Source: Vairimorpha necatrix
Taxonomy: Eukaryota
Assembly: GCA_036630325.1 (NCBI GenBank)
Contig: CP142731.1
Location: 930,001 to 994,000 of the forward strand
Length of the DNA: 64,000 bases
Reading direction: 5' to 3'
Both the position numbers and the translations under genes were made by a program. A model generated the notes under the pieces. That model worked only from the letters and a program-made list of their open reading frames with translations, did no database searches and was not told where the DNA came from. Within the stretch, counting starts at the first letter, position 1. Each line of letters starts with the position of its first letter. Below are positions 1,991-36,470 of this stretch, in pieces.

Positions 1991-3486
1991 TTTATAACAC
2001 GTATATTATATTTTATACTAAAAGAATAAAATCACAGAATTTTGAAAGGCTTTTCTTACTCTATAATAAAACATACACAAAATGATCCTAACTTTTTATT
2101 TATATACGTTAACATATAGATGTTGAAAGAAGAATTAATAGTTTAATTGCACAACATCGGGCAAATTAAGTCGACAAATATATTGTTGCATTCGAAAGAT
2201 GACTGTGCCAGTTACAAACTTAATAATTGTAGATCCAAAGGAAATTTTAATTATTGTGTTTGCAACTTAAATTTTCCAAATGTTACGAGCCAAAAGAATA
2301 ACATGCCACAATTAAACATTTTATTATCCTTTGATTTTGATTCTCTTTATGTTAGTTGTTACATGTTTTAAAATGCTGAATAATTTAGATTTATTAAGCA
2401 TTACTCGATAATTGTAATCTATATTTTTTTAGTTTTTTTCTTAGGATTTTGCAAATTTTTTCATTGAGTTGTTTTTTATACACTAAACTACTGTCGATCT
2501 AATTCCCTTGGTTCATTCTAACCTTATGAATATTTATTTTTACTTTCAAGAATATTTATGGCGATTAACAATTTTCATCTTAAGTAATAAAAACCACCAC
2601 TTTGTTTGAATATAATACAAAGTGCAAGCTATCTAATCTATATTTAATCAGCTTCAAGTATATAATACGAATTATGGTAACTTACTTTTAATACAGGATA
2701 AAATTAGAAAATATTGAATCAAAATATGATTTAATTTAAATCGTACTTATAAAATCGAATTCTTAGTGGTGCAATTTGCAATTTTTCATTTGTCTCTTGG
2801 TAAAGCTGACTTTAAGCAATATGAACCCGGCCAATAATTACGTATATTAAGTAACTAAGGTTTCTCGAAAAAAACATTTAATGGGCTTAAAATTTTTTTA
2901 AACATAGTGTTTTTAAAATTTACTAAATAAAAGGCTTTGTGTACTTTAATCGTTCAAATATTAATTTTTGATTTAATTCTCACTTAAATAATAATAGTGG
3001 TTTAGTATTTAATTTCATTACATATTTAAATTAGAGAAAGAAAAAATTCTTTTTAGTAATTAAAGTTTACTTCTGCCAAAAAGAATACAATTGCAATGTA
3101 AGCTTTGATTAATAAATAAATTTTTTTTAAAAAAATATTATACAAAGATGTTAAGTACTGCATAGAAGATCATTGAGGAAGTATAAACTCGCCAAAAGGA
3201 ATTCCTTTGGGCCCCGATCCCGATCTTTGCTTCTATTTTCTAACATTCCAGCGAATGCATTCAAAATTTTTCTTATTGTATATGAGATGCCTTTATCATT
3301 TTTAGAACTTATTTAGTGATTTTATAACAAACATACACAAAGAAATTAGGCAAAATACTAAAAGACCCATCGTGCTTGGCATATTAATTTTTTTACCCAC
3401 AAAAAATAATTTACAGGCGCAGGAGAAAGACCAAGAGTTCTAACCCCTTTTAACAAAAAAAATTAATAATCAATAATATTATAACG

Positions 3487-4348
3487 ATGTTTAAGGAAAC
3501 AATCAGGCTAGATCCGAAGCAATTTACTGCTTCCTACAGGATAGAAATATCTTCTGTGGACAAGAGGGACAATGTCCCCATTTTGGATCTCATAGGAAGA
3601 CCGTGGATCATTTAGCTACCAAGAGTGATCAAATGCTGTGTTTTAATTATATAAAAAGACACAACGAGGTAGTTAGATGCATTCATCTCTTACTATGTAT
3701 TAAATATGGGTTAAGAAGACAAAGAAAATACGTGGATACTTAGTACAAGAGATCATGGAAAATGATCGTGCTGAAATAAGAGTAGATACGAGAATATCCA
3801 CTAATATAAAGGTAACCCATAATAAGCCTGATATTCTTGTTTTTGACAAGAAGAAGAAAGAAATTTTAATAGTTGAAGTCGGTATAACCAACCAGGATCG
3901 ACTTACTATAGTTGAGAATGAAAAACTAAGAAAATTTGACCTTCTTGCAAATGAACTGGGACTAATACATAAATCCCATACAAGAATAGTTCCTTATGTA
4001 ATGACATGGGATGGAGTGGTGACCAAATATCACAGAAAGTACATCAGGGAGCTAGAAATCCAACCCTACCTGGAAGCATATATCCAGTCTATTGTGATGA
4101 AGAAGACTCTAGAGTCCATCTCTTTGGAAAGACGACGAGGATACGATCAGGAGGATGCAGAAGAAGAAGTGGCTAGAGCTGTAAGCGCACTAGCGAATAT
4201 GGTGACCGTTAAAGAAGTGGTGTCGGCAAAGGGGAATGAAGCTGCTAAAGTGAAGTTGGAAAACATTAATAATTTCACAGAAACCAAAGTCTGTGAAGAG
4301 CTGAATCCCATGAGCGATACCGGGGAAAGCTGTGCTATGAATATCTAA
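3487..4348 (+). mobile_element. Degenerate, 5'-truncated RLE-type non-LTR retrotransposon; endonuclease ORF 3755-4348 still open
   Basis: Upstream LQDRNIF..QCPH..KTVDHLAT (broken); ORF contains HNKPDILVFD..IVEVG..KLRKF..PYVMTWDG. Confidence 0.88.
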
Positions 4349-10344: not shown

Positions 10345-10595
10345 TTTATATTACATAATTTTTATATTACATAATTTTTATATTACATAATTTTTATATT
10401 ACATAATTTTTATATTACATAATTTTTATATTACATAATTTTTATATTACATAATTTTTATATTACATAATTTTTATATTACATAATTTTTATATTACAT
10501 AATTTTTATATTACATAATTTTTATATTACATAATTTTTATATTACATAATTTTTATATTACATAATTTTTATATTACATAATTTTTATATTACA
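10345..10595. repeat. Minisatellite of the 16-bp unit TTACATAATTTTTATA: 15 perfect copies (10351-10590) plus partial units
   Basis: Read directly; the array continues at 13771-13803 on the other side of the LTR element. Confidence 0.97.
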
Positions 10596-10643
10596 TGTAT
10601 TTATTTATCATAATGAGGGTAAAAATTATCAAAATATATAACA
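10596..10643 (-). repeat. 3' LTR (48 bp)
   Basis: Identical (48/48) to 13723-13770; minus strand TGTTATATATTTTGATAATTTTTACCCTCATTATGATAAATAAATACA. Confidence 0.95.
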
Positions 10644-10653
10644 TCCCCCCTCC
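10644..10653 (-). other. Polypurine tract (GGAGGGGGGA)
   Basis: Purine run directly abutting the TG of the 3' LTR on the minus strand. Confidence 0.9.
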
Positions 10654-10666
10654 AAGACGGTTAGTC

Positions 10667-13600
10667 TCACTTTATCCTTAACCCAAGCAGACTTTTTAGA
10701 TCATAGTGCCTTTTCTTTACATATCTTCCATTTACTAACTTAACTATATAAGAATCATTGCCACATCTCTCTATAATTTTCCCACTCTCTAAAAACCTAC
10801 CTTTCGAATATTTATCCGCACCTTTCAAGTTTTCCTTCTTAGCTACTCTCACGTACTCACCTACTTTAAATTTTTCCCGTTTCCCCCTGTTAAACAGTTT
10901 TCCATATTTCCCCTGTGGGCTATTTTCAATCATTACATGTCCAGTTTTATCCTCTGTCGCTTCTATTGGTGTACATTTTAGTGCCGTGTGGTAACTCATA
11001 TTATATTTTTCAATGCTTCCCATGACCTTCTCTGCAAATGTACCTTCTTTAGTCTTCAGAATGCTCTCTCGCAGCGTACCTATAACCCTCTCGACTCTGC
11101 CATTACTCCTGTGTGATTCGACACTTACTTTCCTATGTTTAATTTCTAGTCTGTTACACAACTCTCTAAACCCCTCATTGATAAATTCTCGCCCATTATC
11201 CGTTATAATCTCTTCGGGCTTTTTTCCTTGTTCACACAACTTACTTAAAAATTCAGTCACATTCTTTCCAGTCTTGTTCTCCATTACCGTGCCCCATACT
11301 CTTCGAGTGTAATAATCTATCGCAACCAATACGTATTTACCTGCGTCTCTAAAATCAATGAGATCCAAAGCAACCTTTTCTAAATAACGTGTAGTATCTA
11401 CAAACTCACATCCACCGAGTCTTTTTCTATTATATATTTGACATTGTACACACTTTCGAATTGTCTCATTTATGTCCTTCTTTATTCCGGGCCAATAAAA
11501 TCTTTCCCGCATCGCGTAATATACACTTGTCATACATCTATGTCCAACTTTTTCGTGGTATTCCTGCATCAAACTTTCCCTTGACTCTTCTGGTGGTATC
11601 TCGACTTTCCGTCCTGAATCAAATCTCCAATATTTTTTTCCTTCTGCGTCATCGACGTGCGCTTTCCATTTACCCTCTATCTGCTTGGCGGTCCTTTCTC
11701 TGATTTTCTTTTTCTTTTCATCGTCTTCCATATGTATCCTGCTTAACGCGTCAGCCACCACCATTTCTTCTGGTTTCTTATATTCTATGGTGAAGTCAAA
11801 TTCCTGGATCTTTTCAATCCATCTATTTATTCTATTGTTATTAAAACACGGTTTATTTCTAATCTCAACCAAGGCTTTATGGTCCGTCTCGATTTTAAAC
11901 TTCCTACCGCGCAACTCGTATTCAAATCTTTTTATCCCCCAAAATACCGCGTACATTTCTTTCTCCGATATAGTATATCTGGTCTCTGTAGGTGTTAACT
12001 TTTTTGAACTCCATTGGATTGCTACCCATTCATCTTTATCGTTCTTCTGAAGTAACACGGCTCCTATCCCTACATTGCTCGCGTCCGTTCTCAATATAAA
12101 TTCCTTCCTATAATCAGGCAATCTAAGTTTCCCCATCGCTCTCAAAACTTCTTTCAGCTCTAAAAACTCTCTATTCATTTCAACCGTCCATTCCCACTTC
12201 TTATCTTTACCTCTCAAGCTATCTGTCAGATGAATAGTTAATCCCGCGTAATTCTTTATAAAGTTCCTAAACCATCCTGTCATTCCTAGGAATCTTCGTG
12301 TTTCACTTACACTTGTCGGCTGCGGGAATTCCAACGCCTCGTTCTTCTTTATTTCATTCGCTTCAATATCTGTACCATTCAATGTGACTCCTAAGAGCTT
12401 AACTAACTGTTGGCTAAACTGTATCTTCTCAATATTCAATCTCATTTTATGTCTTTTTAATCTTTCCAATGCTTCTATAACTAGCTTGTCATGCCTTCTT
12501 TTAGTTCTAGCGTGTATAACGATGTCGTCCATATATACCTCCACTCCTTCTCCTTGTAAATCTTCAAATATTTGGTTCATTATTCGTTGTAAAATCTGAG
12601 GGGAATTTTTATATCCCATTACCATACTGTTCCATTCATATACCTTTCTGTTAAATTCAAAGTCCGTTTTGTGCTTATCCTCTTCTTCAATCTCTACGTG
12701 GTAAAAGCCTTCCTTCAGATCTATAACGGTAAACCATTTAGACCCCTGTGTGGCTCTAACGATGTCCCTAATATTTGACAACTCATACGGATCTTTTTCA
12801 ACTAAGTCATTTAAACTCATTAGATTACTTACAAGCCTTACTCCTCCGTTAGGTTTTACTATAGCTCTAATTGGGTTCCTCCACTCGGATGTTGATCTTC
12901 TTATAATCTTTCTTTCTTCCAAACTTTTTATATATTTTTCAGTTTTTTCCATCAACGCCTGTGGGATAGTTTGTCCTCTTTTAACTACTTTTTTCCCTGG
13001 TGGCGTCTCAATTTTACATTTCTCTATCTTACAGTGTACGATCTCTTCCTGCTGCAAGTCAAAAATTTCTCTAAACTTCGCTTTTATATCTTCAATGACA
13101 AGGCCCTCTTCTATTCTATCCTCTCTCATTCCTCTCCTTTTTGAATTTTGTTTACGTTTTGCTTCTCCGCATTTCCTATATTCTTGTGCGCTAAGTTCTG
13201 TGCTTGTAGATCCACTCTCTTCATGAACAATTAAATACTTGTTAAAATGTTTATTTTTATTATCTTCTTCTTTCCTCTTCCTTACGAAGCAATCTCTTGC
13301 CATGTGCCCAAATCTACCACAGTAAAAACAATCTCTACTTCTTACTCTCGTAGTTTCTTCCCTTATTTTTCCTAATGCTCCTCTATTTGCCAGCTCCTCT
13401 CGAACTGTTCCTCTAACCGACTCTGCAATTATTTCCATCATCTTACTTTTGTCTTCTTCTTCCTTCTTTTTTAATTCGTCCTTTCTAACCTCCTTTTCCA
13501 TTTCTTCAATAATTAAGGACCAACTATCTTCTTTTTTAATTCTTTCTACCATAAAGTTCTTTACTTCTTCCGAACCCATTTCATAAATTCTTGCCTTCCA

Positions 13601-13738
13601 TAGAGACTCATCTACTCCATCCAACTCTAGCTTATAAACTATTCTTTTAATTTCTTGTAACATTATTCTGGCCCCTTGACCACAGCCATCACTTGTTGAC
13701 TCTCGATTTGGTATCGCCCCCATGTATTTATTTATCAT
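10667..13738 (-). CDS. Gag-Pol polyprotein (CCHC nucleocapsid, reverse transcriptase, RNase H, integrase); no protease motif seen
   Basis: CFYCGRFGHMARDC; RT IDLKEGF, MVMGYKNSP, YMDD; RNase H TDAS, EKE, TDHKAL, ADALSR; integrase H-x4-H..C-x2-C, ALD, TDNG, GRVER. The track start at 13771 borrows a TSD base; the likely start is 13738 (after CCC) or 13723. Confidence 0.93.
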   Translation of the reverse strand: MINKYMGAIPNRESTSDGCGQGARIMLQEIKRIVYKLELDGVDESLWKARIYEMGSEEVKNFMVERIKKEDSWSLIIEEMEKEVRKDELKKKEEEDKSKMMEIIAESVRGTVREELANRGALGKIREETTRVRSRDCFYCGRFGHMARDCFVRKRKEEDNKNKHFNKYLIVHEESGSTSTELSAQEYRKCGEAKRKQNSKRRGMREDRIEEGLVIEDIKAKFREIFDLQQEEIVHCKIEKCKIETPPGKKVVKRGQTIPQALMEKTEKYIKSLEERKIIRRSTSEWRNPIRAIVKPNGGVRLVSNLMSLNDLVEKDPYELSNIRDIVRATQGSKWFTVIDLKEGFYHVEIEEEDKHKTDFEFNRKVYEWNSMVMGYKNSPQILQRIMNQIFEDLQGEGVEVYMDDIVIHARTKRRHDKLVIEALERLKRHKMRLNIEKIQFSQQLVKLLGVTLNGTDIEANEIKKNEALEFPQPTSVSETRRFLGMTGWFRNFIKNYAGLTIHLTDSLRGKDKKWEWTVEMNREFLELKEVLRAMGKLRLPDYRKEFILRTDASNVGIGAVLLQKNDKDEWVAIQWSSKKLTPTETRYTISEKEMYAVFWGIKRFEYELRGRKFKIETDHKALVEIRNKPCFNNNRINRWIEKIQEFDFTIEYKKPEEMVVADALSRIHMEDDEKKKKIRERTAKQIEGKWKAHVDDAEGKKYWRFDSGRKVEIPPEESRESLMQEYHEKVGHRCMTSVYYAMRERFYWPGIKKDINETIRKCVQCQIYNRKRLGGCEFVDTTRYLEKVALDLIDFRDAGKYVLVAIDYYTRRVWGTVMENKTGKNVTEFLSKLCEQGKKPEEIITDNGREFINEGFRELCNRLEIKHRKVSVESHRSNGRVERVIGTLRESILKTKEGTFAEKVMGSIEKYNMSYHTALKCTPIEATEDKTGHVMIENSPQGKYGKLFNRGKREKFKVGEYVRVAKKENLKGADKYSKGRFLESGKIIERCGNDSYIVKLVNGRYVKKRHYDLKSLLGLRIK
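13705..13722 (-). other. Primer binding site, TGGGGGC..., tRNA-Pro-like
   Basis: Directly follows the 5' LTR CA; first 7 nt equal the classical tRNA-Pro PBS start TGGGGGC. Confidence 0.65.
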
Positions 13739-13770
13739 AATGAGGGTAAAAATTATCAAAATATATAACA
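13723..13770 (-). repeat. 5' LTR (48 bp) containing AATTT, CCC-ATG and AATAAA
   Basis: Identical to 10596-10643. Confidence 0.95.
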
Positions 13771-13803
13771 TTACATAATTTTTATATTACATAATTTTTA
13801 TAT
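13771..13803. repeat. Right-hand remainder (~2 units) of the 16-bp minisatellite
   Basis: TTACATAATTTTTATA x2. Confidence 0.9.
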
Positions 13804-15067
13804 TTATATAAAAAAGTCATCAAAGGACATTTTAGTAGTTGTTATACGTGTTGCTCAAGAAAATAGAGGTTAATTTTACAGGAAAATATAGAATAACAGA
13901 ATTTAAATGACTCTATGGACTTATCATTTCTCTTCATAATACCCAAATTTTTTTCAGCAAAAGTTTGTAAAATTTCACATGGTTAACACAAACCATTGTC
14001 TTAGACGAATATATAAAAGAAAAAAGTTTACGATAAATATGCAATTTCATCAGACTCATCTCGCTTTTCTAATAATACCCTGCAAATATAAATTGCTTAT
14101 TTTACGCACTAATTTGGAAATTATTTCATATAGTTACGTTATTCGGCAAATAATAAAACAATACAAACTAGCGAAAAGAACATAAAAGATTTTACAAAAT
14201 TCTTTTCTCATGGAATAATTGCCTAATAATACACTTGAGAGTACTTCAATGCTTTTTCGGAATAGAGAAGTTTTAAATTAGAACGATAACAGAAAAGAGA
14301 ATTGGAACAGTCGTCCAAAACTCAATTGTTTTATTTAGATTTTCAGTTATTTTACAAAAATAAAACTTTAAGAAATATATAAAAAACTTCTACCTTATGG
14401 GATAGTAAATATGCAGTAAAATTTCAACTGATTTTAGTAAAAAATCTATTTAATGGCTCATGTCTTCAAAAAAATTTCTACATTTTATTTTGTTTTCTTT
14501 TCTATTTAAGACGAATTATTTGAATAGTTTTATAAAAAAGCGCAAAGTTTATACTAAAAAGTTTGAATTTACAAATGTATATTCCATCATTTTAAATGAA
14601 AACTATATAAAAATTTCCTAGTTTTGTATATAGAATTAAAGTCAATATTGCATAACTCACGTCATTAGAACAATTTGAAGTCTTATAATTGATTCAATAC
14701 TTTTTTGCACATTGCAGTAGTTTTTTCAAAAATATGGAACAAATTCAATTTTTCGAACCGTAAAAAAAGCTAAATGTTTCTTATAAACATAAAAATATTC
14801 AAATGGTCTATGTAAAACGAGGACTTATTATTTGATCCGTTTGATGAATTAAAAAGTAAAAAAAAAGTAACGGATTCTTCTAGTTTTTTCCATTACATTC
14901 GAATCTACATAGCATCATATAAAAATCAGAAATAATAATGTTCATTGACGTACAAACACTGCGAATGAAAAAAACATAAAACTAACATACCCTTAATATA
15001 TTGTTTATTGAAAAATACTTTTTAAAATTTTTTCATAAATATCATCAGGAACTCTTTTTGAATATCG

Positions 15068-15859
15068 TTATTCAATAGTCTGTGAATTAACTTTTCCATA
15101 ATCAATGGTTTGCAACACATTTCCGTTATTATAAACATTTTGTTTATGTTGATTGAGCCTATTAATATTATTTTCATTTTTACGGGACGTTATATTTCGT
15201 CTTATTTTTTTTGCAATAAATAAATAGTCTGCATTGACAAACACATTTTGAAATATATAGTTTTTCTTCTTTTCCATTTCTACTGTCAAATGTTTATCAA
15301 TATATAATTTTAAATCATTTGAAGTAAGGCTTTTAGTATTGAAATTAATACATAAAAGTGTAGCATATATATTTCTAGTTTTTTCTGCAAAAGATTTTGT
15401 AAATTCAAATATTTCTCCTTTCCTCTTACCATAATAGATTTTATGTAGATTTTCATTTCTTAGTATTGCATAGTATAAATTAAAGTTAATGTCTTCCCTA
15501 CCAATGTTATATTGCAAATAAACTGGTATAAAATCTTGAACATTTTTTATGGGGAAATTAATGTTATCCAGAACCAAATTAAACAATATTCTTGATATTT
15601 TTTCTGCTTCGTATTCGACAAATTCAGTCATCAGAAATGTATGAGCCGTTTGATGAAGTAAATGACAGCAGTCTCTAATCTCATTTTTTAAATTGTTTCT
15701 TTCTTTTGACTTTGAAGAGTTCTTGATCACCTTTTTTTCTGTGGTTTCTGTTTGTGTATGAACATTCATACTGGAATGCCTTAATCTTGTTTCTGTTTCA
15801 CTGCTACTTATTGATTGATATATGTGTAAAAACAATTTTAAGCTCAGAAAAAACATCAT
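15068..15859 (-). CDS. Putative secreted protein, 263-aa family, copy 1
   Basis: Hydrophobic N-terminus; family motifs ETET, DCC, LFNLVLDNINFPI, TLLCINFN; CCCCC before ATG. Confidence 0.85.
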   Translation of the reverse strand: MMFFLSLKLFLHIYQSISSSETETRLRHSSMNVHTQTETTEKKVIKNSSKSKERNNLKNEIRDCCHLLHQTAHTFLMTEFVEYEAEKISRILFNLVLDNINFPIKNVQDFIPVYLQYNIGREDINFNLYYAILRNENLHKIYYGKRKGEIFEFTKSFAEKTRNIYATLLCINFNTKSLTSNDLKLYIDKHLTVEMEKKKNYIFQNVFVNADYLFIAKKIRRNITSRKNENNINRLNQHKQNVYNNGNVLQTIDYGKVNSQTIE

Positions 15860-21331: not shown

Positions 21332-22123
21332 TCATATAGATACAGATAATCTGTATCTTTCATAACTAATTGGGTCCATCACTTTTCCGTTAGCATATCC
21401 TAAATTTTTATCTTGATTGAGCCTACTAAAATATAAATCATTTTTAAATGGTAAAATATAATGTTTTATATTTTTTGCAATTAAATAATCATCAGAAACA
21501 AACACTTTTTTGACAATATATTTTTTCCTTTTTCCCATTTTAATTGTCATATGTTTGTCGATATACAAAGATATTTCGGCCATTGAAAGCCGAAAAACAT
21601 TAAAATCAATACAAAGAAGTGTCTCATACATATTTCTGGTTTCTTTAGCTAAAGATCTTGTAAATTTAAATATCTCGTCTTTTTCTTCCCCATCATGAAT
21701 TATTTGTGAATTTTCATTTCTTAGTAAAGCATAATATAATTCATAATTTATGTCTTTTTTATGAATGAAGTATTTTGAATCCATTGACAAAATTTCTTTA
21801 GTATTCTTCCTTATAGGAAAATTAATGTTATCCATAACTAAATTAAACAAATTTTTTGCTATCTCTTTTGCTTCATAATCAAAAAATTCCGTCATCTGAA
21901 ACATAGGAAATTTTTGATGAAGTAAATAGCAGCAATCTGTAATTTCCTTCTTTATACTGTTTAATTTTTTTAATTTTTTCGACTTTTTTTTAGCAGCTGA
22001 TTTTTTGATTGTTTCAGGCTGTGTATAAACTTTTATAATGGGATGTCTTAATCTTGTTTCTGTATCACTACTACTTAAGGATTTATATATATGTAAAATA
22101 AATGTAAGGTACACAAAAAACAT
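21332..22123 (-). CDS. Putative secreted protein, 263-aa family, copy 2
   Basis: Same motifs as copy 1; CCCC before ATG; upstream ~300 bp resembles that of copy 1. Confidence 0.85.
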   Translation of the reverse strand: MFFVYLTFILHIYKSLSSSDTETRLRHPIIKVYTQPETIKKSAAKKKSKKLKKLNSIKKEITDCCYLLHQKFPMFQMTEFFDYEAKEIAKNLFNLVMDNINFPIRKNTKEILSMDSKYFIHKKDINYELYYALLRNENSQIIHDGEEKDEIFKFTRSLAKETRNMYETLLCIDFNVFRLSMAEISLYIDKHMTIKMGKRKKYIVKKVFVSDDYLIAKNIKHYILPFKNDLYFSRLNQDKNLGYANGKVMDPISYERYRLSVSI

Positions 22124-26981: not shown

Positions 26982-27773
26982 TTAAAGCAATAATGGTAAT
27001 ATGAATAGACTATCTTTTGTTATATTCTTTACTTTACCATCGTCATATATACTTTTTTTATATTGATTAAATCTTTCAAAATTAATCATACTATTATGTT
27101 CCAAAATACCGTAGAGTATATTTTTGTATATAGAGAAATATTCTTCAAGATCAAATACTTTTTTTACTTGATAATTTAGCTTTGTCCCCATTTTGATTTT
27201 CATATATTTATCAATGTACAGTCTTATGGCATTTGGAGATAGGTTTTGTACGTTAAAATTGATACATAAAAGTGTTGCAAACATTTTTCTAGTATGTTCC
27301 GCAAGAGATTCTGTAAATTTGAAATTTTCTTTTTCTTTGATACTATAATTTTTATTTGGATAATTATTTCTTAATAATTTATAGTATAATCGAAATTTAA
27401 CATCTCTCTTATTAATTGTATATTCTCTATAAACTTTCAAAACATCTTTTGTTTTATTCTTTATCGGGAAATTTATATTATCCAGAACTAAATTAAATAA
27501 CGTTCTTGATATCTCATCTGTTTCTTCTTCTATAAATTTTGTCATTGGAAATTTATGAATTTTTTGAAAAAATAATAAACAACATTCTTCTACTTGATTT
27601 TTTATAATATTTGTTTGTTCTTGATTCAATTTTTCTCGTATAACAACTGGATTTTGGCTAAAACTAGATTGTATTTTCATACCTACTATTTGTAATTTTG
27701 ATTTTGTCTCTGTTTCATTGATACCTATTGATTGATGTGTGTTATAAATGAACAATGTACAAACCAAAAACAT
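26982..27773 (-). CDS. Putative secreted protein, 263-aa family, copy 3
   Basis: Family motifs; CCC before ATG. Confidence 0.85.
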   Translation of the reverse strand: MFLVCTLFIYNTHQSIGINETETKSKLQIVGMKIQSSFSQNPVVIREKLNQEQTNIIKNQVEECCLLFFQKIHKFPMTKFIEEETDEISRTLFNLVLDNINFPIKNKTKDVLKVYREYTINKRDVKFRLYYKLLRNNYPNKNYSIKEKENFKFTESLAEHTRKMFATLLCINFNVQNLSPNAIRLYIDKYMKIKMGTKLNYQVKKVFDLEEYFSIYKNILYGILEHNSMINFERFNQYKKSIYDDGKVKNITKDSLFILPLLL

Positions 27774-31440: not shown

Positions 31441-32232
31441 CTATTCGATTGAAGGTAATCTTATATGAGTATGGTCATGATAATCTATCACTTTCCCATT
31501 ATCATATACATTCTGTTTATTTTGATTAAATCTTGAAAAATTAATTTCATTCTTATGTTTCATTGTAAAATACTGTAAATTTGCGCCAATCGAGTGATAA
31601 TTATCAGAATCGAATACTTTTTTGATCTTATAATTAAGCTTTGTACCCATTTTAATGTTCATATGTTTCCCTATATACAGTTTTATTTCATTTGGATTAA
31701 TAATGCGGATGTTGAAATTTATACACAAAAGTGTTGCAAACATTTTCCTAGTTTGTTGCGCAAGAGATTCCGTAAATTTATATATTTCCCTCTCATCAAT
31801 CCGATAAATTTCATCTGGAAAAATATTTCTAAGTAAATTATAATATAAATTATACCTAATATCTTTCCTATTAATTGTATATTTTCTACCCAATGGTATT
31901 GTATCTTGAATGTTTCCAATAATAGGAAAATTAATATTATCGAGAACAAAGTTGAATAGCGTTCTTGATATCTCATCAGATTCGGATTCGAAAAATATAG
32001 TCATTGGAAAATTATGAAAATTCTTAGAGAATAATTGACAACAGTCTTCTATTTCAAATTTTATATTATTGGTTTCTTCATAATTTAATTGTTTTTTTTT
32101 ATTAACTGGTTTTTTAGTGTTATTAGGTTGCTCATTCACACTTTTATTTGGAATTCTTAACATGGTTTCTGTTTCATTACTACCTATTGCTTGATGCATA
32201 TTCATAATATATGTTAAGTAGACAAAAAGCAT
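31441..32232 (-). CDS. Putative secreted protein, 263-aa family, copy 4
   Basis: Family motifs; CCCC before ATG. Confidence 0.85.
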   Translation of the reverse strand: MLFVYLTYIMNMHQAIGSNETETMLRIPNKSVNEQPNNTKKPVNKKKQLNYEETNNIKFEIEDCCQLFSKNFHNFPMTIFFESESDEISRTLFNFVLDNINFPIIGNIQDTIPLGRKYTINRKDIRYNLYYNLLRNIFPDEIYRIDEREIYKFTESLAQQTRKMFATLLCINFNIRIINPNEIKLYIGKHMNIKMGTKLNYKIKKVFDSDNYHSIGANLQYFTMKHKNEINFSRFNQNKQNVYDNGKVIDYHDHTHIRLPSIE

Positions 32233-34944: not shown

Positions 34945-36470
34945 CCGCGGAAAGTCTTCAAAAATTGATATAATGACAATCCATGTTATGTACTGTCATC
35001 GTTCGGAGCGGACGCCAGGGAAAATGCTACACGAGAAGGGCAAAAAAATAAACAAAAAACATGGTATTTAATTGTAATTCGTGTATAAAAATTCTTTAAT
35101 ATTAAAGGCATGAAAATAAAATTGAAAACAATGAAAAACAAGGAGTTTTTGTCTTTTTATAGATTGATAATGTTCCAACAAGGTTGGTAGAAAAACAAGA
35201 AAGAGATGCTTTTATGAAAAAGCAAAAAAAATTATCCTTTTTGAAGATGTGATTGACGGCATCACAGAGCTCACGGTGCGATTAAATGTAGGTCTATATA
35301 GATCATTAAGATTCTTTAACACCAACAAGCAACGATTCAAAATCGATTATATAAAATTGTTCCATGGATCAAATGGGCATGCGAGATGGAACGGATTGTT
35401 TCCATTATTGCAAACAAAGTCTACGACGCAACACAAAAAGATATCCAGAGAGTATTAGATAGCTGTAATATATGTCAAATAAAGAGAAATCTAGTAACTA
35501 GACCAGTTATTAGACCAATTGTAGCAAAATATCCAAGGGAAAGATATGTTGCAGACTTGATTGATCTCCGGCCATATCACGAACTCAATGAAGGCTATAA
35601 ATGGTTATTGTAGATTATTTTACCAAATTTTGTTGGACGGTATTACTGCTTGATAAAACAAGTATTAGTGTGGGGAATGCCTTTGAAACATTGTTTAGAA
35701 TGTTTGGTTCTTGTTCTATACTACATACTAATAATACTAATAACGGCAGAAAATTTGTAAATCAAGTACTCGTCGAATTATGTCGGAAATATGAAATAAG
35801 ACCTGTAAGGGGAAGAACTAGACGTCCATGGATACAAGAACAGATATAACGATGCAATCGTACAATAAATTAGATGATTGCATCTATTCACAGGACAAAA
35901 ATTTTTGGGGGCAATGGACCAAGGTAAGAGAAGAAGTTACCTGGTTATATAATAATTTAAGACACTCTACTACGAGACAAACACCATTCTCTCTGATATT
36001 TGGTAGACCCATTGGGGACATAATGGACGTGTCTAGAATCACGGGCATTATAGATTCGATTAATAGCAAAAACCACGAACAAGAGTACGGGGACGAAGAA
36101 CACACTGAAGAAAGTTTATAAGTTGTCTTAATTGCAATACTAATGAAGAAATACAGCAACTATTTGCTCTGAATAGCACAAACCTTTTTTTAAATGAAAT
36201 TTATCATGATGCAGCTAGAATTCATACACAAACTGCTGCAAATAGAATGGTACAAAGAAGTATGTGAGAAATGTTTTATTAGAATTTTTAATAGCAGTAA
36301 GACTCATCATAAGACCTTATTAAAAAAACGTCAATACTAGAAGACATTCTCTTTATAAACATTTAGATGCCGAGGTCTATGTTGTAACCGACATAATACA
36401 ATTTAATAAAGTAAAATTATGCAGAGAAGATGATAATGGAATTAATATAGATGAAATAAGTACTAAAGGT
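34945..36470 (+). mobile_element. Frameshifted integrase-like (rve, Ginger/GIN-type) transposase pseudogene
   Basis: H.SNGH..CNIC zinc motif, ERYVADLIDL, IVDYFTKF, LHT(D)NGRKF and YNNLRHSTTRQTPF spread across ORFs 35249-36121; no RT or RNase H upstream. Confidence 0.8.

Follow-up and report, generated by a model that had tools for sequence, protein, structure and literature searches.

How can an LTR retrotransposon of Ty3/gypsy descent persist if its Gag-Pol polyprotein carries no retropepsin, an enzyme that textbooks hold to be indispensable for LTR retrotransposons and retroviruses? The question is raised by one long open reading frame (ORF) in a 64-kb stretch of Vairimorpha necatrix DNA (hereafter the window), in which an earlier note, made from the sequence alone, had read a Gag-Pol polyprotein without an aspartic protease. 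We therefore asked whether the protease is really missing, whether its loss is private to this copy or shared by relatives, and how such an element might replicate.

Structure of the element

The locus is a complete, recently inserted LTR retrotransposon of a Ty3/gypsy-derived microsporidian lineage. The element is 3,175 nt long, and one ORF covers 97% of that length (Table 1). It has structural features of Ty3/gypsy elements, namely LTRs of the form TG...CA, a putative PBS, a polypurine tract (PPT), a TSD in the range of 4-6 bp, and the order reverse transcriptase (RT)-RNase H-integrase. The LTR borders were defined from the PBS, the PPT and the TSD, the raw exact direct repeat being 51 nt, and the resulting 48-nt LTRs are far below the usual LTR length. 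On the other side of the element from the main satellite array, a further 2.2 copies of the satellite lie at 13770-13804, and when the element and one TSD copy are removed in silico the 16-bp satellite continues in phase. No further copies of the element were found in the 64-kb window, where a weak integrase-like match stands alone at 35601-35801.

The 5′ LTR contains a TATA-like TATATAT (LTR nt 4-10), CCC (25-27), ATG (33-35) and AATAAA (39-44). Microsporidian expression signals include CCC shortly 5′ of the ATG, and AAUAAA, according to the available text of PMC2803860, and we infer that the CCC and AATAAA of the 48-nt LTR probably serve as the expression signals of the element. The putative PBS, 12-20 nt long, sits within the coding sequence, where it encodes MGAIPNRE; a tRNA scan of the 64-kb window returned no tRNA genes. 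At the other end, the 3′ LTR follows the stop codon after only 23 nt.

Table 1 Features of the element and its insertion site, in window coordinates.
Feature	Position	Strand	Remarks
TSD copy upstream, TGTAA, 5 bp	13771..13775	-	TGTAA flanks the element on both sides
5′ LTR, 48 nt, TG...CA	13723..13770	-	Part of the 51-nt exact direct repeat
PBS-like sequence TGGGGGCGATACC...	13703..13722	-	Abuts 5′ LTR; TGG start, fits tRNA 3′ CCA
Long ORF, 1034 aa	10667..13771	-	Order Gag (helical)-CCHC knuckle-linker-RT-RNase H-integrase
Gag-Pol ORF from LTR-internal ATG, 1023 aa	10667..13738	-	Stop codon 10667-10669
Helical Gag core, ORF aa 32-144	13340..13678	-	Three short helices and one ~60-residue helix (AlphaFold2)
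CCHC zinc knuckle CFYCGRFGHMARDC, aa 148-161, nucleocapsid-like	13289..13330	-	Pfam zf-CCHC, 25.1 bits vs cut-off 20.8
Charged linker, ORF aa 162-221, at usual protease site	13109..13288	-	pLDDT below 50, strands absent
Reverse transcriptase, ORF aa 222-526	12194..13108	-	Pfam RVT_1 305-464; YMDD at aa 413
RNase H	11684..12193	-	Pfam RT_RNaseH 553-658, RT_RNaseH_2 528-627
Integrase and C-terminal extension	10670..11683	-	Pfam Integrase_H2C2 726-782, rve 802-880
Polypurine tract GGAGGGGGGA	10644..10653	-	Abuts 3′ LTR
3′ LTR, 48 nt	10596..10643	-	Identical to 5′ LTR
TSD copy downstream, TGTAA	10591..10595	-	Matches upstream TGTAA
16-bp satellite, 15.8 copies, insertion target	10345..10596	.	TRF, 100% matches

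Gag-Pol polyprotein

The ATG at 13771 was rejected as the start codon, as it is built from one flanking base and the TG of the LTR. Besides the LTR-internal ATG, an alternative ATG at 13723 spans the LTR/PBS border; counted from it, the putative tRNA primer site doubles as codons 2-7. The position aligned with this second ATG is Met-Ala or Met-Gly in 14 of the 15 relatives in alignment A1 (DG in P0011), and 10 of the 15, P0011 included, have an earlier Met 5-7 residues upstream of that position. The N-terminal peptides in the family, of the types MGAxP, MANTR, MATAA and MAPE, imply corresponding classes of PBS. Depending on the ATG chosen, the part preceding the knuckle has 136 (ATG 13738) or 131 (ATG 13723) residues, in agreement with the 130-135 aa given in the earlier note.

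The AlphaFold2 model, which covers aa 12-275 and was built from a 24-sequence alignment, has pLDDT 93-97 in the Gag core. There is space in Gag for one small helical lobe and the long helix only. Neither Foldseek nor VIA gave a significant match for the Gag model; its likeness to the C-terminal lobes of Arc and retroviral capsids lies within the helical background in VIA (Z 6.2 and 5.5) and at background level in Foldseek (E 1.8-5.2). The nearest ESM Atlas clusters, annotated zf-CCHC, Retrotrans_gag or Ty3_capsid, score 0.88-0.92 with few features in common and amount to no more than a lead. Residues C, C, G, H and C of the knuckle are invariant across alignment A1, and the linker that follows contains an NK-x-Y motif and a basic patch.

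Among the catalytic domains, RVT_1, RT_RNaseH, Integrase_H2C2 and rve all exceed their Pfam cut-offs, and mean pairwise identity within the family is 55% for RT, 61% for RNase H and 46% for integrase. The statement that RT, RNase H and integrase are intact thus holds for the domains and for the YMDD motif but has to be qualified at RT residue 370, which is D in the window copy and A in 15 of 16 aligned family members (KTAFEF). A second copy, from a public run, also has A at this residue. Because D replaces a nearly invariant RT alanine, the window copy itself may be impaired.

Absence of an aspartic protease

We confirmed that the element encodes no aspartic protease: neither its sequence, read in every frame, nor its predicted fold contains one. 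Pfam, profile, six-frame and structure-prediction searches were all negative and the positive control worked, which upholds the central claim of the earlier note. The evidence is as follows: (i) There is too little room. From the end of the knuckle to the conserved N-terminal helix of RT (~aa 222) there are 60 aa, compared with ~95-100 aa for a retropepsin; counted as far as aa 244 the stretch has 83 aa and a K/R/D/E content of 46%, so that the "about 70" charged residues reported previously were a fair estimate. (ii) Pfam finds no retropepsin at E<=10 in the whole protein or its N-terminal parts, and no Pfam family matches the 84-aa linker piece. (iii) A protease profile built from six protease-bearing relatives, which recovers the enzyme with E values of 2e-6 to 6.7e-16 in 9 protease-bearing tree relatives outside the training set, does not match the window protein, and in 15 of 35 clade members it matches only at E>=0.32, under 5 bits and inside RT. 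(iv) A six-frame scan for a protease yields noise only. (v) In the AlphaFold2 model of aa 12-275 the helices are followed by a stretch with pLDDT<50, and a beta domain is absent; with this model Foldseek gives 0 PDB matches at E<=0.001 and no retropepsin among its rows. In the sister element L005, which served as the positive control, a beta domain is predicted at aa 211-296 with pLDDT 86-92, and Foldseek gives 254 PDB matches at E<=0.001, with HIV-1 protease and Ddi1 leading. Because the VIA search barely covered the linker part, it is the length of the interval and the model that carry the fold evidence. No divergent protease fold was thus detected by HMM scans or structure prediction of the N-terminal region, where the earlier note had allowed for one.

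The absence is concluded from the lack of room and from negative profile and fold searches with working controls, and not from the missing D[TS]G tripeptide alone. The single D[TS]G of the protein is a DSG at aa 718-720 (nt 11612-11620), 8 residues before Integrase_H2C2 and within the N-terminal part of the integrase; D[TS]G is absent from the other five frames of 10400-14200. The retropepsin motif (hydrophobic-hydrophobic-D-T/S-G-A/S) is missing from the interval between knuckle and RT, where the string that comes nearest is E-S-G at aa 185. If this E-S-G were the remnant of an active site, only ~35 residues would be left before RT, and the motif is not conserved in relatives.

A protease in another frame or on the other strand was rejected by the six-frame scan. 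A TRIM/LARD-type non-autonomous element was likewise rejected, a full RT-RNase H-integrase ORF being present. Because the retropepsin expected of a canonical member is missing, we class the element as a derived Ty3/gypsy variant by descent.

Phylogeny of the protease-less lineage

Comparison with relatives showed that protease absence is fixed across the whole family and is not private to the window copy, a distinction on which the earlier note had hinged. There are 35 protease-less near-full-length relatives, the named ones being from Vairimorpha, Nosema, Enteropsectra and Nematocida. For 16 family members, no retropepsin family is present among the 25 of 39 matched families listed. Retropepsin Pfam matches occur in 0 of 3 and 0 of 8 clade members, compared with 6 of 9 more distant relatives, and the spacing from the knuckle to the RT anchor is 102-181 aa in 26 clade members versus ~350-400 aa in classical outgroups. 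Precomputed Pfam columns were left out of the evidence because they are insensitive: P0054 and P0204 are blank there, yet direct scans find a protease in both. When the N-terminal part of P0054, a protease-bearing sister, was used as the query of a homologue search, P0054 itself was the single protein recovered. The metagenome loci L001, L002 and L004, with no terminal repeats and odd ends, were left out of the anatomy.

In an RT-IN tree of 56 rows, obtained by a "quick" search and rooted on chosen outgroups, one of which split from the others, the 35 protease-less rows lie on one side of a short branch (0.091) with an SH-aLRT of 95. They are sister to 4 protease-bearing rows, the two groups being joined at 99, and the window element nests among protease-bearing gypsy-type polyproteins. 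The lineage does appear to descend from protease-bearing ancestors. Because the protease-less rows form one clade nested among protease-bearing elements, the tree fits a single, ancient loss of the aspartic protease, since which the lineage would have spread. The suggestion of a unique in-frame deletion derivative can be set aside: with 35 divergent protease-less relatives in one clade at SH-aLRT 95, the deletion is ancient and fixed.

Activity of the family

Several observations argue that the family may still be active or under selection. The window copy has identical LTRs and a perfect TSD. A 3,101-nt contig of the element in a public run is 99.6% identical to the window copy, and word depth in the same run is 20.4 on this contig compared with 1.9-3.0 on the flank (the comparison spanned 10597-14100), a weak hint of several copies. 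Between the second copy and the window copy there are 12 differences, 7 of them synonymous against an expectation of 19% (p=0.003). Finally, the family includes dozens of intact ORFs at 41-69% identity.

Proposed replication without an encoded protease

The reading that we tentatively favor, at a little short of an even chance, is that the element works as an uncleaved NC-RT-RNase H-integrase polyprotein. Linkers in the family are 24-83 aa in length, and their mean pairwise identity is 16%. Such an unconserved, disordered segment of variable length is more readily reconciled with an unprocessed polyprotein, or with unspecific cutting by the host, than with a specific site for a retroelement protease. 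Under the uncleaved reading, transcription would begin just 5′ of the ATG within the 5′ LTR (CCC signal), and the AATAAA of the 3′ LTR would yield a ~20-nt terminal repeat for the first strand transfer. No element-encoded enzyme would cut the ~118-kDa protein, which would act as one chain. Its long N-terminal helix, by putative self-association, would bring the chains together. RNA of the element itself would be bound by the knuckle, which would also assist strand transfers and the annealing of the tRNA; cDNA made from this RNA by RT/RNase H would then be inserted by the integrase, still attached to them. As for the linker, it may be a flexible tether, perhaps with a nuclear-import signal, and a matured capsid shell would not be needed. 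Active RT-IN fusions occur in ASLV and Ty3, and the hepadnaviral P protein and LINE ORF2p function unprocessed. To our knowledge, protease activity is required in every Ty3/gypsy element and retrovirus studied. Gag is also needed in excess over Pol, and this argues against an unprocessed polyprotein because covalent fusion fixes a 1:1 ratio, from which such an excess would be unobtainable.

A host protease (e.g., a Ddi1-type retropepsin, the proteasome or another cytosolic endopeptidase) might instead cut the linker, and perhaps the RNase H-integrase junction, to make separate NC, RT and integrase. Canonical biology demands processing, and the linker is predicted to be disordered and so probably accessible. 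About half of the 41 members compared carry the motif NK-x(3-6)-Y soon after the knuckle, where it might serve as a conserved site for cleavage or docking. However, there is no clade-wide conserved site, linker length and sequence drift freely, and microsporidian proteomes are reduced; we consider cutting by the host unlikely, though to be taken seriously. Processing could also be supplied in trans if the clade, as a partially non-autonomous parasite, drew on the retropepsin made by protease-bearing sisters that share its genome. Compact protease-bearing kin do exist (L005, P0054, P0062 and P0107), and the available text of PMC12449221 describes aspartyl-protease domains such as PF13650 as abundant, although variably present, in nine microsporidia. 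Yet the clade is old and has diversified over Vairimorpha, Nosema, Enteropsectra and Nematocida, and lasting dependence would require a helper in each host together with conserved cleavage sites, of which none was seen in the family. Moreover, the 120 matches listed of 1,034 include three named relatives from Vairimorpha necatrix, none of which has a protease, and we judge a supply in trans to be distinctly improbable.

The remaining explanations fare worse. Since no known structure matched the Gag core significantly, its assigned function is putative, and a cryptic non-retropepsin protease or self-cleaving segment might be sought there or elsewhere in the polyprotein. However, the core is a plain helical bundle with a long helix, at 19% pairwise identity in the family and with no invariant catalytic-type residues but E and S at two positions, and its ESM Atlas neighbors are Gag-like; such an activity seems to us scarcely credible. 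Very unlikely, too, is that the family is immobile or the locus an assembly or annotation artefact, the intact ORFs being young relics. The aspartate at a nearly invariant site in the window copy would suit this explanation, but it is opposed by the perfect TSD and identical LTRs, by a 99.6%-identical copy in an independent run with depth above the flank, by the synonymous excess between the two copies and by more than 35 divergent intact ORFs from many sources.

Relation to known elements

With Tf1, a single-ORF element from fission yeast, and with Ty3 from budding yeast, the window element shares the layout LTR-PBS...PPT-LTR, a 5-bp TSD, a CCHC knuckle, the pol order RT-RNase H-integrase, the H2C2 zinc domain and the RT_RNaseH/RT_RNaseH_2 domains. 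Canonical Ty3/gypsy elements, these two included, have LTRs of hundreds of nt and a total length of ~5 kb, whereas the window element has 48-nt LTRs in 3.2 kb, no aspartic protease, a Gag cut down to ~150 aa, a start codon within the LTR and a translated PBS.

Its closest outgroup in the RT-IN tree consists of compact sisters, namely the metagenome locus L005 and the proteins P0054, P0062 and P0107, on contigs of 3.4-3.7 kb. L005 resembles the window element in its short LTRs (67 nt), a CCC-preceded ATG within the LTR, a second ATG across the LTR/PBS border, a PPT adjoining the 3′ LTR and a helical Gag that likewise includes one long helix. The sisters differ in having kept a retropepsin of ~90-100 aa with D-T-G, and L005 differs further in lacking the CCHC knuckle and in an additional 162-aa ORF 3′ of integrase.

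Outside the LTR elements, the hepadnavirus P protein and LINE ORF2p likewise place priming/binding, polymerase and nuclease/integration on one chain with a flexible spacer, a functional analogy, and the coiled-coil RNA chaperone ORF1p of LINE-1 may follow a similar logic in joining a coiled coil to a nucleic-acid-binding module. Hepadnavirus P and the LINE proteins have no sequence kinship with the window protein beyond RT, and LTRs, tRNA primers and a DDE integrase are absent there.

Among the microsporidian elements described previously are Nbr1-8, which are of Ty3/gypsy type and come from Nosema bombycis (Xu et al. 2006, cited in PMC2474625); according to the available text of PMC2474625, Gag, protease, RT, RNase H and integrase are all encoded by nearly every element of this species. 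None of our named homologue matches was an N. bombycis protein. Parisot et al. 2014 (PMC4202319) described microsporidia-specific Ty3/gypsy groups and flagged their single Gag-Pol ORF as unusual; the word "protease" appears nowhere in the available text of that paper. By description, which is the basis of this comparison, Nbr1-8 and the Parisot groups are like the window element in having a microsporidian host and a single Gag-Pol polyprotein ORF. The literature searched contained no account of gypsy-type elements without a protease in microsporidia; the supplements of Parisot et al. 2014, which comprise consensus sequences and the data of the structure figure, may bear on priority.

Implications

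It is possible, although we rate the chance as somewhat below even, that a microsporidia-wide, autonomous LTR lineage gave up proteolytic maturation and a real capsid and multiplies by means of a single covalent chain of NC, RT, RNase H and integrase that acts on its own RNA. If so, a protease would not be universally required for LTR retroelement replication. A long-lived, diversified and apparently self-sufficient protease-less clade, if real, would be a natural experiment on the purpose of processing and would offer a natural single-polypeptide machine for reverse transcription and integration. At 3.2 kb, with promoter signal, start codon and poly(A) signal packed into 48-nt LTRs, the element may be among the smallest self-sufficient LTR retroelements.

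The common minimum LTR length of LTR-finding programs exceeds 48-67 nt, and the named Vairimorpha necatrix relatives are annotated "reverse transcriptase" or "endonuclease". Because their LTRs are too short for such programs and their proteins carry such labels, elements of this kind are easily mis-annotated or missed in microsporidian genomes. Per-species counts of "aspartyl protease" domains may in turn partly reflect which retroelement lineage is resident.

Absence of a protease from the polyprotein

The gypsy-type element carries a single Gag-Pol ORF, which the earlier note had described as lacking an aspartic protease and having a very short Gag. Re-measurement of motif, spacing and length figures shows this description to be accurate. 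The 1034-aa protein has a single D[TS]G, a DSG at aa 718, directly before the integrase zinc domain, at the RNase H–integrase junction named in the note; none occurs in the other frames of 10400-14200. Between the CCHC zinc knuckle and the RT N-terminus lie 60-83 aa, depending on the choice of RT start, 46% of them charged and with no D[TS]G (about 70 charged residues without the motif in the note), and the part preceding the knuckle comprises 131-136 aa (130-135 in the note). Because a retropepsin needs ~95-100 residues and the interval offers 60, it is too small to hold one.

No retropepsin-type peptidase family was found in the whole ORF protein with Pfam, even at E<=10; a weak Peptidase_A17 row falls in the RNase H region, below its cut-off. 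The N-terminal 234 aa and the 84-aa interval, searched alone, yielded the knuckle or nothing, and no protease. With the same library, gag-asp_proteas, Asp_protease_2, RVP_2 or related retropepsin families were detected in six of nine more distant relatives. A custom profile built from the protease segments of those six recovered nine protease-bearing relatives outside the training set at 2e-6 to 6.7e-16. It had no match in the window protein and only noise in the six-frame translation of the element locus; in the protease-less clade, it gave noise only, in 15 of 35 members (E>=0.32, <5 bits, inside RT).

AlphaFold2 modeling of residues 12-275 from a 24-sequence alignment gave a Gag part of three short helices and one ~60-residue helix (pLDDT 93-97), followed by the knuckle, and then no strands at model residues 165-242 (pLDDT <50). 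Foldseek of this model against the PDB returned 0 matches at E<=0.001. The same procedure, applied to the first 350 aa of L005, a metagenome locus with a protease-bearing sister element, produced a beta domain at 211-296 (pLDDT 86-92) and 254 PDB matches at E<=0.001, with HIV-1 protease and Ddi1 at the top. The divergent fold for which the note had proposed HMM scans and structure prediction was found by none of Pfam, the custom profile, AlphaFold2 and Foldseek; four independent tests, all with positive controls, speak against a divergent protease hidden in this interval.

Distribution and phylogeny of the trait

Using the first 320 residues as query, we obtained 38 relatives; many measure ~1,000-1,020 aa and come from short contigs (3.0-3.2 kb). 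Using RT-IN, the named matches above ~40% identity among the best 120 of 1,034 came from Vairimorpha necatrix, Nosema granulosis, Enteropsectra breve, Nematocida minor, N. ausubeli and Vairimorpha apis. Alignment of related copies, proposed in the note as a check on whether protease absence is fixed, gave a short knuckle–RT interval in all 16 family members, and no tested member had a retropepsin Pfam match: there were none in these 16 among the matches listed (25 of 39 families), none in three further members, and none in eight that included the basal and longest ones. The linker spans 24-83 aa in the family and has 16% mean pairwise identity, the other parts ranging from 19% (Gag core) through 46% (integrase), 49% (knuckle) and 55% (RT) to 61% (RNase H). 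Among the 35 clade members, 26 have a knuckle, and in these its distance to the RT anchor is 102-181 aa, compared with ~350-400 aa in classical gypsy-type outgroups, which have hydrophobic-D-T/S-G-A motifs.

The tree was restricted to the RT-IN part, which keeps the trait's own columns out, and comprised 56 rows picked from 268 sequences (803 columns; incomplete proteins and long multi-copy gene models omitted). The 35 protease-less rows lie on one side of a branch with SH-aLRT 95, a short branch (0.091) in a "quick" IQ-TREE search that placed the presumed ingroup row P0170 with the outgroup. Their sister is a group of four protease-bearing rows (P0107, P0054, L005 and P0062), joined to them at 99, and both are nested among further protease-bearing rows. 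Because the 35 rows are monophyletic under the outgroup rooting used, a single protease loss is indicated. The note had offered a mobile in-frame deletion derivative as one option; since 35 divergent relatives lack the protease and form one clade, a copy-specific deletion is rejected. Protease absence is ancient and has become fixed in a widespread lineage of miniature LTR retrotransposons in microsporidia.

L005 is 34% identical to the window element and resembles it in having short LTRs (67 nt), a polypurine tract (PPT), one ATG within the LTR and another across the border of LTR and primer-binding sequence (PBS), and, in the predicted structure, a short Gag made of helices, one of them long; it differs in a D-T-G within a predicted folded retropepsin. 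Sister contigs measure 3.4-3.7 kb and those of the protease-less clade 3.0-3.2 kb, a difference of about one protease. Because of this difference and the compact features shared by L005, the miniature architecture is taken to be older than the protease loss. L005 also contains an extra 162-aa ORF (3428-3916) between integrase and 3' LTR, which resembles the family Gag N-terminus (ASDKLKDFILLN versus consensus S..LK.FIVE).

Organization and insertion site

The 3,175-nt element has only 23 nt between stop codon and 3' LTR, and its ORF occupies a G+C-richer island (0.32-0.35 versus ~0.25 in the surroundings). It interrupts a perfect 16-bp satellite (minus-strand unit TAATATAAAAATTATG, 100% matches), with 15.8 copies at 10345-10596 and 2.2 at 13770-13804. 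Excising the element and one TGTAA brings the satellite back into phase; the insertion target is the satellite.

Features of the element in the window
Feature	Position	Strand	Basis or remark
Gag-Pol ORF	10667..13771	minus	1034 aa, single ORF
CCHC knuckle CFYCGRFGHMARDC	aa 148-161, nt 13330-13289	minus	Pfam
RVT_1	aa 305-464	minus	Pfam
RT_RNaseH	aa 553-658	minus	Pfam
Integrase_H2C2	aa 726-782	minus	Pfam
rve	aa 802-880	minus	Pfam
5' LTR	13770-13723	minus	48 nt, TG...CA, identical to 3' LTR; repeat finder and DNA reading
3' LTR	10643-10596	minus	48 nt, TG...CA, identical to 5' LTR
Primer-binding-like sequence, TGG-initiated	directly after 5' LTR	minus	DNA reading
Polypurine tract GGAGGGGGGA	directly before 3' LTR	minus	DNA reading
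5-bp target duplication TGTAA	flanks element on both sides	minus	DNA reading

The LTR contains TATATAT (nt 4-10), CCC (25-27), ATG (33-35) and AATAAA (39-44). Microsporidian expression signals include CCC close upstream of ATG, 5' UTRs <7 nt and AAUAAA (PMC2803860). The CCC precedes the ATG at 13738 by 5 nt, with identical spacing in L005, and we take this ATG as the start because the spacing fits and recurs. The next ATG consists of the last LTR base and the first two PBS bases, the PBS being read as MGAIPNRE. Met-Ala or Met-Gly occupies this position in 14 of 15 relatives (the relative P0011 has DG), and 10 of 15 have an earlier Met 5-7 residues upstream. The residues that follow fall into the classes MGAxP, MANTR, MATAA and MAPE, which may represent translated PBS variants for different tRNA primers, with the window element and L005 as the basis at the DNA level. 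We read the LTR, partly by inference, as using these signals in an extremely compacted form. The start codon in the LTR, second ATG and translated PBS lie at 13723-13770 and 13703-13738 in the window and at 41-125 in L005.

Activity and possible mode of action

In a public run of assembled contigs, not RNA, the element is represented by a contig of 3,101 nt with word depth 20.4 against 1.9-3.0 in the flank, a hint of several copies in a quantity that is not a copy number. The contig ends inside the LTRs, which fits a repeat with several flanks. Of the 12 differences between this copy and the window copy, seven are synonymous, against 19% expected for random changes (binomial p=0.003), and among the five non-synonymous differences two fall in a single codon. 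At the sequence level, the synonymous excess, the identical LTRs, the target duplication and many intact divergent ORFs speak for selection that still acts on the protein and its Gag part, and a dead family is very unlikely. The window copy itself may be slightly damaged: its D370 (codon 12661-12663), in the RT motif KTAFEF, is Ala in 15 of 16 relatives and in the public-run copy, and may be a mildly disabling private change.

How the polyprotein functions is a matter of weighing several readings. We tentatively prefer, at somewhat under even chances, a protein that works uncut over one whose cleavage is outsourced. The element encodes no protease; its one ORF specifies a structured helical core at the N-terminus, a knuckle that is conserved, and a linker that lacks conservation, varies in length and is predicted to be disordered. 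The long helix would multimerize the polyprotein, the knuckle would bind RNA and act as a chaperone, and the linker would tether these to RT-RH-IN; its basic patches (KRKQNSKRRG in the window element, GKRxKK in near relatives) are candidate nuclear-import signals. Active RT-IN fusions exist in other retroelements, and two proteins that function without processing are hepadnaviral P protein and LINE ORF2p.

A host protease may instead cut the exposed linker, which is the less likely reading; the best hint of a site is the motif NK-x(3-6)-Y, which follows the knuckle in about half of 41 members. In the window, this candidate cleavage or docking site lies at ~13225-13260 (aa ~171-182), and the rest of the linker is unconserved. 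It is improbable that the protease of a sister element acts in trans, and a cryptic protease within the polyprotein is the most remote of these readings.

Comparison with described elements

By descent and layout the window element fits Ty3/gypsy-type elements, without the canonical protease and probably without a two-lobed capsid. Microsporidia-specific gypsy groups with a single polyprotein were described by Parisot et al. 2014, in whose available text the word "protease" is absent (PMC4202319). Gill et al. 2008 report, with reference to Xu et al. 2006, that with few exceptions the elements of Nosema bombycis carry Gag, protease, RT, RNase H and integrase (PMC2474625). The V. necatrix genome paper counts 109 transposable elements, their structure undescribed in the part available (PMC10759460). 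Aspartyl-protease domains are abundant but variably present among microsporidia and are read as virulence factors (PMC12449221); part of this variation may reflect the retroelement lineage carried. In the main texts searched, few of them from subscription journals, neither a protease-less gypsy-type clade nor 48-nt LTRs are described for microsporidia, and a prior report is possible. Three V. necatrix proteins belonging to the family (P0001, P0009 and P0018) are annotated publicly as "reverse transcriptase" or "endonuclease"; two of them, P0001 (623 aa) and P0018 (779 aa), are apparently truncated gene models for an element of this kind.

Neighboring sequences

Beside the element lies a divergent tandem gene family of four minus-strand ORFs of exactly 263 aa each (15068-15859, 21332-22123, 26982-27773 and 31441-32232), 4.5-6.3 kb apart and with 25-52% mutual identity. 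At 35601-35801, a weak integrase-core-like tblastn match to the element's integrase (31% over 67 aa, E 2e-5) is probably a fragment of another mobile element.
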